A stretch of DNA of 64,000 nt from Escherichia coli O127:H6 str. E2348/69 (GCF_000026545.1 NC_011601.1); one strand, 5' to 3'; numbered from the stretch's first letter, positions 9,001 to 15,000 are shown. Numbers are program-made.

Positions 9001-12000
9001 GTGAACTGCTTGAGCAGCGGGCAGAGCCAGTTCCTTCCCGCAGTGTGCCGGATGGCGTTAATTTCCTGGTGGCGACAGTTGATGTGCAGGCGGGACGTCA
9101 TCGCCGTTTTGTGGTTCAGGTAACGGGCTATGGCAGCCGTGGCGAACGCTGGATTATTGATCGTTACAACATCACGCAGTCATTGCGCGGTGACAGCGAC
9201 GGGGAGAGCCAGCGAATTGATCCGGCCAGCTATCCGGAAGACTGGGATGTCCTGCTGACGGATGTTTTTCATAAAAGCTGGCCGCTGGCCTCCGATCCTT
9301 CTCAACAAATGCGACTGATGGCAATGGCGGTGGACTCCGGCGGTGAAGACGGGGTCACTGATAATGCCTATAAATTCTGGCGTCGTTGCCGTCGTGATGG
9401 CCTTGGTAAACGTATTTACCTGTTTAAGGGCGACAGCATCCGGCGCGCAAAACTGATCACCCGTACATTCCCTGATAACACCGGACGAACGGGCCGACGG
9501 GCGCAGGCCGCAGGTGATGTGCCGCTCTGGCTTCTTCAGACGGATGCCCTGAAAGACCGGGTGAATAACGCGTTATGGCGTGACTCGCCAGGTCCCGGCT
9601 ATGTGCATTTCCCTGACTGGCTGGGGAGCTGGTTTTACGACGAACTGACGTATGAAGAGCGGAGTAGTGACGGGAAATGGAGTAAGCCGGGTCGCGGTGC
9701 CAACGAAGCTTTTGACCTGATGGTGTATGCCGAGGCTCTGGTCATTCTGCATGGATACGAAAAGATCCGCTGGCCGGATGCACCGGAGTGGGCGAGCCGG
9801 GAAACCTGGCTGGAGTGTGTCCCGGACAGTACCGAACCGTCACCCTCACCGGAACCGGTATCCACGCCTGTTAAAAAACAAAAACGGAAGAAAACAGTAA
9901 CTGACGATGTTAACCCCTGGCTGACTTCCGGAGGATGGTTATGAACCAGAATGATATCGAAGCCATGATTCAGCGTTATACGGAAGCTGAAATGGCGGTG
10001 CTGGACGGAAAATCCGTCACCTTTAATGGTCAGCAGATGACCATGGAAAACTTATCTGAGATCCGGCAGGGACGGCAGGAGTGGGAGCGCCGCCTTGCGG
10101 CTCTGATTACACGACGACGGGGGCATCCCGGGTACCGGCTGGCGAGGTTCTGATGGCAATTCTTGATGATGTGATTGGCGTTTTTTCACCAGGATGGAAA
10201 GCGGCAAGGCTGCGTTCCCGTGCGGTGATCCAGGCTTATGAGGCCGTAAAAACGACGCGGACACACAAAGCCCGGCGGGAAAACCGAACTGCCGACCAGT
10301 TAAGCCAGTACGGGGCCGTGTCGTTACGTGAGCAGGCCCGTTACCTTGATAACAACCACGATCTGGTTATTGGTGTATTTGACAAGCTGGAAGAACGGGT
10401 GGTGGGGAAAAACGGGATTATTGTCGAGCCACATCCGGTATTACGCAATGGGGCCATTGCCCGTGATCTGGCAGCGGAGATACGCACCCGATGGAGTGAA
10501 TGGTCTGTCAGTCCGGAAGTCACCGGGCAGTTTACCCGTCCGATGCTGGAACGTCTGATGCTGCGTACCTGGCTGCGCGATGGTGAGGTGTTTGCCCAGA
10601 TGGTTTCCGGGCGCATAAACAGCCTGACGCCTTCTGCCGGTGTTCATTTCTGGCTGGAGGCGCTCGAGCCGGACTTTATTCCCATGACCAGTGATGAGAG
10701 CAACAGGCTGAATCAGGGCGTGTTTGTTGATGACTGGGGGCGTCCCGAAAAATATCTGGTGTATAAAAGCCGTCCCGTATCCGGGCGGCAGATGGAAACC
10801 AAAGAAGTGGATGCAGAGCGAATGCTGCATCTTAAATTTGTTCGCCGTCTGCACCAGATGCGCGGGACGTCTTTGTTGTCCGGTGTGCTGATCCGCCTCA
10901 GTGCCCTGAAAGAGTATGAAGATTCTGAGCTGACTGCAGCAAGGATCGCCGCTGCTCTGGGGATGTACATCCGGAAAGGCGACGGGCAGAGCTATGAACC
11001 GGATGGTAATGGCAGCAAGGAGAATGAACGCGAGCTTACCATTCAGCCAGGCATTATTTACGACGATCTGAAACCCGGCGAAGAAATCGGAATGGTGAAG
11101 TCGGATCGTCCCAATCCTAACCTTGAAACTTTTCGTAATGGTCAGTTGCGTGCCGTGGCGGCGGGCAGTCGTCTGAGTTTTTCCAGTACGGCACGCAACT
11201 ATAACGGCACTTACAGCGCCCAGCGTCAGGAACTGGTTGAGTCTACTGATGGCTACCTGATCCTGCAGGACTGGTTTATTGGTGCCGTCACCCGCCCGAT
11301 GTATCGTGCTTGGCTGAAACAGGCTGTGGCATCCGGTGTTATCAGGCTACCCCGCGATCTTGACCGTTCTTCACTGTATACCGCGGTGTATTCCGGACCA
11401 GTGATGCCGTGGATTGACCCTGTTAAGGAGGCTGAGGCCTGGAAAATCCAGATTCGTGGTGGAGCGGCGACAGAATCAGACTGGGTACGTGCAGGTGGTC
11501 GTAATCCGGATGATGTCAAACGTCGGCGCAAGGCCGAAATTGATGAAAACCGCAAGCTGGATCTGGTATTTGATACCGATCCGGCCAGTGATAAAGGAGG
11601 CAGCAGTGCCGCAACGAAACGACAGGAGCCACAGCACACCGACGACCAGTCCGAAGAATAATTCCTGGTTCAGGATGCAGGCTGGTCACCAGAGTGACGC
11701 GGATATTTATATTTATGACGAGATTGGTTTCTGGGGTGTTACAGCGAAGCAGTTTATCAGTGATCTGAATGCACTGGGCGATATCACCCACATTAATCTC
11801 CATATTAATTCACCGGGTGGCGATGTCTTTGAAGGCATCGCCATTTTTAATGCGCTGAAAACACATGGTGCGTCCATTACCGTTTATGTCGACGGTGTGG
11901 CGGCGTCAATGGCGTCGGTCATTGCGATGGTGGGAAACCCGGTCATTATGCCGGAAAACACCTTCATGATGATTCATAAACCATTTGGCTTTACGGGCGG

Positions 12001-15000
12001 TGATGCGGAGGACATGCGCACCTATGCCGACCTGCTCGATAAGGTTGAGGCGGTTCTGTTACCCGCTTATGCACAGAAAACCGGGAAAACCACCGATGAA
12101 ATTGCTGCCATGCTGGCGGATGAGACCTGGATGTCCGGTGCCGAATGTCTGGCACAGGGATTTGCTGATCAGGTAACGCCAGCCGTTAAGGCAATGGCAT
12201 GTATTCAGTCAAAACGTACAGAGGAATTTAAAAAGATGCCGGAATCCATTCGAAACATGATTACTCCGCCACGCAACAGTGCTCCACGCGTACAGGATGA
12301 TGAACCTGCAGCCTCCCGGACGCCAGTGCAGGCAGCAGCACCCGTGGTGGATGAAAACAGTATCCGTGCGCAGGTACTGGCAGAGCAAAAAGCGCGTGTA
12401 AACGGTATTAATGATCTGTTTGCCATGTTTGGCGGGCGTTATCAGACGCTGCAGGCTCAGTGTCTTGCCGATCCTGAATGTTCGCTGGAGCAGGCCCGCG
12501 AAAAGTTGTTGAACGAGATGGGGCGCGAGTCCACGCCATCCAATAAAAATACCCCGGCTCATATTTATGCCGGTAACGGTAATTTTGTGGGGGACGGGAT
12601 CCGCCAGGCGCTGATGGCGCGTGCCGGATTTGAAAAAACCGAACGTGATAATGTCTACAACGGGATGACCCTGCGTGAATATGCCCGTATGTCACTGACT
12701 GAACGGGGTATTGGGGTTTCCAGTTATAACCCGATGCAGATGGTCGGTGCGGCGTTCACACACAGTACGTCTGACTTCGGTAATATTCTGCTGGATGTTG
12801 CGAACAAAGCCATTCTGCAGGGCTGGGAAGATGCCCCTGAAACCTATGAACAGTGGACGCGGAAAGGTCAGTTGTCTGATTTTAAAATTGCCCATCGTGT
12901 GGGTATGGGGGGCTTCAGTGCTCTGCGTCAGGTGCGTGAAGGGGCGGAATATAAATACGTCACCACCGGAGATAAACAGGCCACTATTGCACTGGCGACC
13001 TATGGCGAGCTGTTCAGTATCACCCGTCAGGCCATTATCAATGATGATCTGAATATGCTGACCGATGTCCCGATGAAACTGGGCCGTGCGGCGAAATCCA
13101 CTATTGCCGATCTGGTTTATGCCATTCTGACGTCTAACCCGAAAATCTCCACAGATAATGTAAGTCTGTTCGATAAAGCGAAACATGCAAACGTACTGGA
13201 GAGCGCTGCAATGGACGTGGCATCGCTGGATAAAGCCCGCCAGTTGATGCGCGTTCAGAAAGAGGGGGAGCGTCATCTGAATATTCGTCCTGCGTTCGTA
13301 CTGGTACCGACGGCGATGGAGTCTGTTGCTAACCAGGTCATTCGCTCCTCAAGTGTCAAGGGGGCTGACATTAACGCCGGTATTATTAACCCGGTGAAAG
13401 ATTTTGCGACCGTTATTGCAGAGCCTCGTCTTGATGATAACAGCCAGACCACCTTCTACCTGGCTGCGTCCAAAGGCTCCGATACGATTGAAGTGGCTTA
13501 TCTCAACGGTGTGGATACGCCATATATTGATCAGATGGAGGGCTTCAGTGTGGATGGCGTGACAACGAAAGTGCGTATTGACGCCGGTGTCGCGCCAGTT
13601 GATCACCGCGGTCTGGTGAAATGTACGGCGTAAACGTCGCAGACAACAACTCTGATGGCCCGTAAGGGCTTTTTTTGTACCTGAAATCAGCCCCTGAACG
13701 GGGCTGTGCGGAGACAGTTATGGCAAAGAATTTTGTAGAAGAAGGAAAAACGGTGGCGATTGTTGCCAGTGCAGCCATCAGCAGCGGAGATCTGGTGCAG
13801 GTGGGTGATGTTTTTGCGGTGGCGCTGACCGATATTCCACAGGGTGAAACAGGCGACGGCATGACCGAAGGTGTGTTTATCCTGCCTAAGCTGAAAACGG
13901 ATGACATGAAAACGGGTAAGAAGGTTTATCTGAAGTCCGGAAAAGTTCAGCTGACTAACAGCGGCTCTGATCCGCTGGTCGGGGTTGTCTGGGCAGATGC
14001 CGGAACCAGTGCAGAAGAAGTGCCGGTAAAACTCAATGTCTGATCCCTTTTCTCGGCTGGCAGCGCGTATGGATGCGATCACGGTCAGAAAGATGGGAAA
14101 GACAGCCTCGATTAATGATGTCGATATGGCTGTGATCCCGGGCGAAACACTGGCAGAGCTGAATGCTCTGTCCGGACCTGCTGTCTCTCTGGTGGTGTTT
14201 TCTTTGGGATACCGCCCACGGCGCGGGGATCGCGTTGTTTATGACGGACAACATTGGACGGTCACACGGCATGAACGCTTTAACGGTAAGCCAATGATCT
14301 TTATTGAGTAAAGAGGTGTGGGATGAAGGGGCTTGAGAATGCCATCCGCAATCTGAACAGCCTTGATACCCGTATGGTGCCACAGGCCAGCGCATGGGCG
14401 ATAAACCGTGTGGCACAGAAAGCGGTCTCGGTTGCCACCCGGCAGGTTGCCGGGAATACCGTTGCGGGAGATAACCAGGTGAAAGGGATACCCCTGAAAC
14501 TGGTACGTCAGCGTGTCCGGGTGTTTAAAGCCAGTCCGTCAGGAAAAATGACGGCCAGGATCCGCGTCAACCGGGGCAATCTGCCCGCCATTAAGCTGGG
14601 GACAGCCCGGGTCAGACTGGCCCGGCGTGGTGGAAAACTGCAGTACCGTGGCAGTGTGCTGAAGGTGGGTAAATATCTTTTCCGGGATGCGTTTATTCAG
14701 CAACTGGCGAATGGTCGCTGGCATGTGATGCGGCGTATTGATGGCAAAAATCGTTACCCCATTGATGTGGTGAAAATCCCGTTGTCCGGACCGCTGACAC
14801 AGGCATTTGAAGATGCCCGCGACCGCATCATTGCTGCGGAAATGCCGAAACAGTTGGGTTATGCACTGAAACAACAACTGAGGTTATGGCTGACCCGATG
14901 AACCGACATACACAAATCCGCCAGGTCGTACTGGCACGCCTTCGGGAACAGTGTGGAGACAGCGCCACGTTTTTTGACGGGCTTCCGGCATTTGTTGATG

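Follow-up and report, generated by a model that had tools for sequence, protein, structure and literature searches.

A one-frame protease, scaffold-like and capsid gene of the Gifsy-2 type in a lambdoid prophage of Escherichia coli E2348/69, with a candidate internal start

The Salmonella phage Gifsy-2 carries a 'tripartite capsid gene' (STM1034.3n). Writing in Virology in 2010, Effantin, Figueroa-Bossi, Schoehn, Bossi and Conway reportedly described this gene, under that name, as encoding an N-terminal ClpP-like protease, a central domain of ~200 residues that is possibly scaffolding and a C-terminal capsid protein. Their cryo-electron microscopy is said to have shown a lambda-like T=7 capsid decorated with gpD-like trimers, for which HK97 gp5 and lambda gpD served as models, and the mature capsid protein that builds this shell is reportedly released by proteolysis. 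Here we describe a gene of Escherichia coli O127:H6 str. E2348/69 (GCF_000026545.1, NC_011601.1) located at 11606-13633 on the + strand of a 64,000-nucleotide stretch of the genome (the window, whose first letter is position 1). It is almost certainly a one-frame protease-scaffold-capsid gene of the Gifsy-2 'tripartite capsid gene' type, carried by a lambdoid prophage. From 2675 to 22633, a span of 19,959 nt that includes the gene, the window agrees with the E2348/69 chromosome without a single mismatch. The Gifsy-2 prohead protease and coat genes have been described as fused, and the head proteins of phage mEp213 as resembling those of Gifsy-2 (PMC12315714). The mEp213 protein is 74% identical to the fusion protein of E2348/69. 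'Major capsid and protease fusion proteins' are also annotated routinely in actinobacteriophages of Arthrobacter, Microbacterium and Gordonia. The fused protease-scaffold-capsid architecture is already known, from the Gifsy-2 description and from an NCBI family of its own.

Other head systems solve the same task differently. In HK97 the protease, gp4, is the product of a separate gene and belongs to a different protease family, and the shell is crosslinked and has no decoration protein, whereas in the E2348/69 prophage a cement protein gene follows the capsid gene. Lambda encodes C, Nu3 and E separately, as the initial annotation of this DNA had correctly stated. The portal, terminase and tail genes of the prophage are lambda-like, but its head protease has a ClpP (S14) fold and is not of the lambda C type. 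In lambda C/Nu3 and herpesvirus UL26/UL26.5, an in-frame internal start yields an abundant protease-less scaffold next to a rarer protease-carrying long form, and the ratio of the herpesvirus short form to the protease-carrying long form is ~10:1 (PMC11565193). The E2348/69 gene resembles these nested pairs in having a Shine-Dalgarno (SD) sequence and an AUG after the protease domain, from which a nested product may be expressed, and differs from them in that the capsid protein itself lies in the same frame.

The protein scored 985.3 bits against the NCBIfam model NF045540, 'ClpP-like prohead protease/major capsid protein fusion protein' (scaf_prot_MCP1), which has a cutoff of 475. Residues 9-651 of the protein aligned to profile positions 2-651 of 652, and the Prokaryotic Genome Annotation Pipeline (PGAP) gives this family name to the E2348/69 gene (WP_086214752.1). 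PHROG 133 was likewise a full-length match. A sister model, NF045541 ('prohead protease/major capsid protein fusion protein'), scored 400 bits against a cutoff of 525 and matched residues 197-649, which span the scaffold and capsid parts. The NF045541 member gp8 of Stenotrophomonas phage S1 (2002-3984 of L088) is also a one-gene fusion and lies between the portal and decoration genes. Its N-terminal domain of ~200 amino acids (aa) had no Pfam match, ClpP included, suggesting that a related capsid module has here been combined with another kind of protease.

Comparison with Gifsy-2 itself revealed 69.8% identity over residues 1-651 in one piece and one frame (tblastn), with the same order of protease, central segment and capsid, with terminase, a small protein and the portal upstream and with decoration downstream. 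As in Gifsy-2, full-length homology in one frame is combined with a lambda-like head module that has no capsid gene other than the fusion. The two genes differ in that the capsid part is 87% identical and the protease part 62%, so that the halves have different histories; there are insertions and deletions in the linker and at the junction, the host here is E. coli, and this copy resides in a prophage with broken tail genes. Similar mosaicism was observed when other phages were compared with the window. In Fels-1 the capsid part is 93% and the protease part 64% identical, and in 1720a-02 the values are 70% for the capsid and 90% for the protease. These opposite half identities indicate that recombination has swapped gene halves, with a crossover somewhere in the linker/scaffold region.

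The initial annotation had left two explanations for the uninterrupted frame: a natural, self-processing fusion, or the loss of a stop or a frameshift that once separated two genes. The distribution of the gene supports a natural fusion. Matches were found in 2,124 of 5,426 complete E. coli genomes, 2,002 of them at ≥80% coverage, and copies at least 99% identical are present in the isolated phages cdtI, mEp460, Ayreon, Tritos, HannyBb and phi458. Whole-protein tblastn found the protein in one frame in Shiga toxin (Stx) phages (77%), mEp213, mEp043 and LLS (74%), Fels-1 (72%), Gifsy-2 (69.8%), a Providencia phage (64%) and ~30 Pseudomonas phages, F10 and MD8 among them (57%). Protease and capsid motifs were in a single open reading frame (ORF) at 85 of 87 related loci, and the remaining two were interrupted by contig ends. 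In an exhaustive search of 1.84 billion representatives we examined the best 150, each from a separate 50% cluster; most are 640-750 aa long and match over a single stretch, ~residues 20-672, at identities down to ~35%. The six diverged phages that were opened (Gifsy-2, Fels-1, F10, mEp213, 1720a-02 and PSTCR8lys) all have a single fused coding sequence (CDS), with the genes around it in unchanged order. Metagenomic sequences at 39-45% identity also retain the module of terminase, portal, fusion and cement protein. Three apparently split copies proved not to be two-gene versions. That of VT1-Sakai results from an IS629 insertion and that of PAN70 from a flagged homopolymer frameshift, while the one in Eeyore is an annotation artefact consisting of one CDS and an opposite-strand miscall.

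A pseudo-fusion, whether two genes became joined in this strain through stop loss or a frameshift or an error in sequencing or assembly made them look joined, would be in keeping with lambda, HK97 and Mu, in which no fewer than two of the three functions are encoded separately, and with the presence of other frameshifted genes in this prophage (tape measure and J). Its probability is nevertheless negligible, since ~2,000 E. coli genomes and viable phages share the same frame, as do phages of Salmonella, Klebsiella, Providencia and Pseudomonas and more than 100 clusters at 50% identity; a curated model exists for the fused form, and split homologues were not found. The loss of a stop or frameshift can therefore be set aside: the loci that are not single ORFs are cut by contig ends, and VT1-Sakai and PAN70 are the only broken copies. 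A natural two-gene version was not found among the homologues and loci examined, and close homologues with two separate genes, which the initial annotation had named beforehand as the refuting observation, were likewise absent from the related loci. The natural fusion is the alternative that stood. Conservation of the fused gene, its curated family model, its presence in plaque-forming phages, the full-length homology to Gifsy-2 and the invariance of the catalytic Ser and His all favour it, and by analogy with characterised phages it would be self-processing.

The gene extends further upstream than originally proposed. On the + strand the frame runs without a stop from 11405 to the TAA at 13631-13633, and translation from the ATG at 11675-11677 (+), used in the initial annotation, gives 652 aa. 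That single open frame is real, but the ATG is probably not the start codon. No SD was found upstream of it, and the equivalent position lacks a start codon altogether in Gifsy-2, Fels-1 and Pseudomonas phage F10, whose starts are 96-99 nucleotides (nt) upstream of it. The true start is probably the GTG at 11606, 69 nt upstream, which is preceded at 11593-11600 (+) by the SD AAAGGAGG with 5 nt (cagca) in between. The predicted anti-SD duplex energy at this site is -11.6 kcal/mol, and the layout AGGAGG-N5-GTG/ATG occurs in 74 of the 87 related loci. Since the start is most likely GTG 11606, the product probably has 675 aa (73.5 kDa) rather than 652, with the ATG at 11675 encoding Met24. These limits are those of the RefSeq CDS WP_086214752.1, and they imply a 56-nt overlap with the end of the portal gene (11661) and a 23-residue N-terminal extension that the NF045540 model leaves out. 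GenBank phage records set the start inconsistently, at the ATG equivalent to 11675, at the upstream GTG or, in Eeyore, at an over-extended position. They also give this same fusion gene the names head maturation protease, major head protein, scaffold protein, Nu3, preconnector protease C, 'terminase protein', Clp protease and hypothetical protein.

That one frame joins a protease, an Ala/Pro-rich linker and a capsid-like C-terminus, as the initial annotation had described, was borne out by Pfam matches on both domains. CLP_protease matched residues 23-168 of the 652-aa translation (E 6.5e-36), and Phage_capsid_4 matched residues 352-649 of the same translation (E 7e-55), with a weaker Mu gpT-like match. 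An AlphaFold2 model, built from an alignment of 131 full-length fusions, had a mean predicted local distance difference test (pLDDT) score of 89. It confirmed a ClpP fold for the first half and an HK97 fold for the second. In this model an ordered protease (~22-222) is followed by a disordered linker (223-245), three helices (250-307) and, after a junction, the capsid domain.

The ClpP-like (peptidase S14 fold) head-maturation protease domain lies at 11699-12175 (+). It has a ClpP/crotonase-like fold together with a family hidden Markov model match, and NF045542 ("head maturation protease, ClpP-related") covers this N-terminal domain of the fusion. The predicted catalytic serine, Ser101 of the 675-aa product (Ser78 of 652), is encoded at 11906-11908 (+) in the motif AASMAS, and the predicted catalytic histidine, His124 (His101 of 652), at 11975-11977 (+) in the motif MIHKP. 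These motifs align with the GxAASMG active-site motif and with MIHQP, respectively, of solved ClpP. Only five residues are invariant across the 131 diverse full-length fusions, and they include G71 and G72 of an SPGG motif as well as Ser101 and His124. When 134 sequences were counted, Ser was present at the position equivalent to 101 in 130 and His at that equivalent to 124 in 132. Two other identities for the domain were rejected. Against cellular ClpP, the TIGR00493 score was 58.7, where 308.6 is required, the remaining ClpP models were far under their cutoffs, and the domain is fused to a capsid protein in a phage head module. For a lambda gpC-type SppA/S49 protease, TIGR00706 SppA_dom (22, cutoff 155) and SDH_protease (27.6, cutoff 31.3) both fell short; ClpP matches best.

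Beyond the protease, the Pro/Ala-rich disordered linker (aa 223-245; 12272-12340, +) has pLDDT values below 50 and is only 12-36% identical to those of relatives. The three-helix module that follows (aa 250-307; 12353-12526, +) is moderately conserved and is scaffold-like or 'delta-domain'-like. Its helices, 250-273, 280-288 and 294-307, were predicted with pLDDT >90, and a scaffolding role can be proposed for it by analogy with the HK97 delta domain and the Gifsy-2 central domain. The junction (aa 308-326; 12527-12583, +) is prone to insertions and deletions and was modelled at low confidence, with a pLDDT of ~55 for aa 311-320; Fels-1 and Gifsy-2 have insertions there, and maturation cleavage is expected in this segment. 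The HK97-fold major capsid protein region, defined by both the capsid-family match and the fold, spans ~aa 318-675 (12557-13630, +) and would comprise ~358 aa and 39 kDa if the cut is near Ala318. A further conserved element, (F/Y)-x-x-x-P, directly follows the protease domain at residues 208-212 (nt ~12227-12241), where Pro is present in 127 of 134 sequences and the surroundings are not conserved. A hinge, a docking site and an autocleavage site are all possibilities for its role.

The linker region also contains a candidate internal initiation region (12221-12238, +), composed of GAGGA at 12221-12225, an A/T-rich 10-nt spacer and the ATG at 12236, which encodes Met211 of 675 (Met188 of 652). 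Initiation here would produce a nested protein of 465 aa (50.7 kDa) with the N-terminal peptide (M)PESIRNMITPPR, consisting of the scaffold-like module and the capsid domain. Such a product, with a ~107-aa segment in front of the capsid domain, has the layout of HK97 gp5. An ATG is present at Met211 in 7 of 7 phage relatives, each with (G/C)AGGA 10 nt upstream, and the same combination is found in all 81 unique sequences of the clade. In those 81 sequences the nine codons ending at ATG 12236 are the window of lowest synonymous variation in the gene. Each of three distant relatives has an SD-preceded ATG elsewhere in the same linker, and across the family the linker contains a Met in 123 of 131 members. 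Upstream of these Mets, position -4 is E, K, R or G and position -3 is E, A, G, D or V, which is the GNN codon set. The footprint [EKRG][EGD]xxM, a definition made post hoc, occurs at 31% of linker Mets compared to 4.5% of other linker positions (~7-fold, odds ratio 9.6) and to 3% of Mets elsewhere (~10-fold, odds ratio 14). At the linker site Glu codons are GAG 20 times and GAA 6 times, compared to 375 and 492 gene-wide (p 0.0009).

At the DNA level we ranked internal ATGs by predicted anti-SD pairing energy in 23 lineages that are less than 80% identical pairwise; nine were chosen systematically and not by context, and diverged loci from the scan with P0132 were added as extra lineages. Among 18-33 in-frame internal ATGs per gene, the linker ATG ranked best in 15 lineages and second in the remaining 8. 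By chance ~0.06 per gene would be expected, and none of 500,000 simulations reached 15. The signal was confined to windows overlapping the linker. In S1 gp8 of the sister family NF045541, the best internal SD-ATG is Met207, caggagcacaccATG, directly after the N-terminal domain. Bioinformatic testing thus points to a candidate site for in-frame initiation after the protease domain. On this comparative evidence we somewhat favour the view that the conserved SD and AUG are functional and yield a protease-less 465-aa scaffold-capsid protein. That the nested start is functional and also not previously reported, across NF045540 and apparently NF045541, is a more tentative proposition, which we put a little below even odds. 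The initial description of the gene as encoding one fusion is right as to the fused frame, but is probably incomplete, as the conserved internal start suggests a second, nested product. A programmed -1 frameshift at T_AAA_AAG before ATG 12236 was considered and rejected; codons 186 (GAA/AAA) and 187 (AAG/AAA/CAT) vary, so the slippery site is not conserved.

The same observations have to be weighed against two explanations without internal initiation. If the gene made the full-length fusion only, each capsid subunit would bring its own protease and scaffold, and the SD and Met in the linker would be a coincidence or a translational pause site. The nested CDS is annotated neither in the E2348/69 RefSeq record nor in any of the six diverged phage records, and Glu-rich motifs can generate SD-like strings by chance, as ETWM does inside the protease. 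We nonetheless consider it rather unlikely, because a linker ATG that ranks first or second by SD in all 23 lineages, in non-homologous contexts, is very improbable by chance, and the internal SD equals or exceeds the annotated-start SD in strength in several lineages. The GNN set at -3 together with the GAG bias suggests selection on the nucleotides beside the AUG, beyond what a purine-rich pause site would need. The Glu/Lys-rich motif and Met could instead be a recognition or cleavage site for the protease, conserved as protein and not as a translation start. Maturation proteases do cut such linkers, and the acidity of the linker motif is a feature shared with some prohead protease sites, T4 gp21 for example cleaving after Glu; the Pro of the nearby F-x-x-x-P is, moreover, conserved at the protein level. 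Set against this, the -3 residues E, A, G, D and V are chemically unrelated and share a first-position G, the preference for GAG over GAA among Glu codons concerns the nucleotide and not the residue, and the position of the motif relative to the folded domains shifts between lineages while a spacing of 6-7 nt to the ATG is kept. Conservation as a cleavage site is therefore very improbable.

Taken as a whole, a tripartite head-shell gene, probably with a nested product, is the best explanation of the locus (rough probability 0.9, with less weight on the nested product). Several points weigh against it or against parts of it. The nested start is weak in E2348/69 itself, where the SD of ATG 12236 is -6.0 kcal/mol and ranks second of 26 internal ATGs, behind Met536 at -6.4. 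The dip in synonymous variation had a p value of 0.047 raw and 0.16 after per-amino-acid normalisation in a shuffling test; as it is not significant, we do not count it as independent proof. In distant relatives the Met is not at the same alignment column (11 of 134), and the signal emerged only once the linker was treated as one region; the footprint owes its enrichment to a post hoc definition, and the 23 lineages are related, so that the tests are not fully independent. In the protease, the third residue of the triad is variable: the equivalent of ClpP Asp171 is Glu173, which adjoins Asp172; this position is occupied by E in 113 of 134 sequences and by D in 14. A Ser-His dyad is one possible arrangement of the active site, and the use of Glu as third residue is another. 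The proposed self-cleavage, its site and the capsid geometry are transferred from Gifsy-2, HK97 and lambda. Finally, because the tail genes of this prophage are broken, this copy of the fusion gene may never make virions.

With these reservations, homology and the examples of HK97, lambda and Gifsy-2 suggest an assembly pathway. In it, the capsid domains would co-assemble on the portal into a procapsid, with the N-terminal parts facing inward and bringing the protease into the shell. The protease, using Ser101 and His124, would then cut off itself and the scaffold-like module near residues 308-326, leaving a capsid protein of ~39 kDa. Upon DNA packaging the shell would expand and be cemented by the product of 13720-14043. 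If the nested SD and AUG at ATG 12236 are used, most shell subunits would resemble HK97 gp5 and only a fraction would carry the protease, with the proportion of long to short form depending on how strong the two ribosome-binding sites are relative to each other.

The surrounding head module is arranged in the order small terminase-like DUF1441 gene, GpA-type large terminase gene (7842-9944), a gene for a 70-aa protein, portal, fusion, decoration and tail genes. The lambda-family portal gene (10153-11661, +; Pfam Phage_portal_2, E 6e-82, and RefSeq) is the one that overlaps the start of the fusion gene. The head decoration ('cement') protein gene (13720-14043, +; Pfam Phage_cement_2, E 1e-20; PHROG 122 'head decoration') is the conserved downstream neighbour of the fusion, also in the relatives at 39-45% identity. 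Between the two lies a terminator-like hairpin, GGCCCGTAAGGGC, followed by T7 (13657-13677, +); in mEp213 a rho-independent terminator is annotated at the same place, and the hairpin may tune the ratio of capsid to decoration protein in the late operon. The next gene, 14036-14311, carries conflicting names, being a 'DNA breaking-rejoining protein' according to PGAP, a 'minor tail protein' according to PHROG 153 and 'Gifsy-2' according to Pfam PF13856, a family described as 'ATP-binding sugar transporter from pro-phage'. These names look unreliable, as the position of the gene suggests a head-tail joining protein.

Further downstream, the tape-measure gene is split into two ORFs (16780-18939 and 19023-19865) and the tail-tip gene J into three (22256-24223, 24211-24927 and 24924-25970); RefSeq flags a frameshift in both. 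The prophage is probably tail-defective with an intact head module. Downstream of the tail-fibre genes, ~29343-32543 is occupied by type III effector cargo comprising nleB2 (29343-30323), nleC (30357-31376), an nleH fragment, an IS256 remnant and nleD (31845-32543). This block coincides with a dip in G+C to 0.40 at 28-32 kb.

The fusion itself is an ordinary finding, since it is a documented head-gene architecture to which PGAP gives the right name in thousands of genomes. In practice it matters for annotation, as phage records variously label the gene as protease, scaffold, Nu3, terminase or capsid and place its start inconsistently. The fused layout is not new; what may be new is the conserved internal start. 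If the nested start is true, it would explain how ~400 capsid subunits can be supplied per shell without packing ~400 proteases. The solution of long and short forms used by lambda C/Nu3 and herpesvirus UL26/UL26.5 would then operate even with the capsid protein in the same frame, and predictions of capsid-protein length and architecture for this large family should use the nested product.

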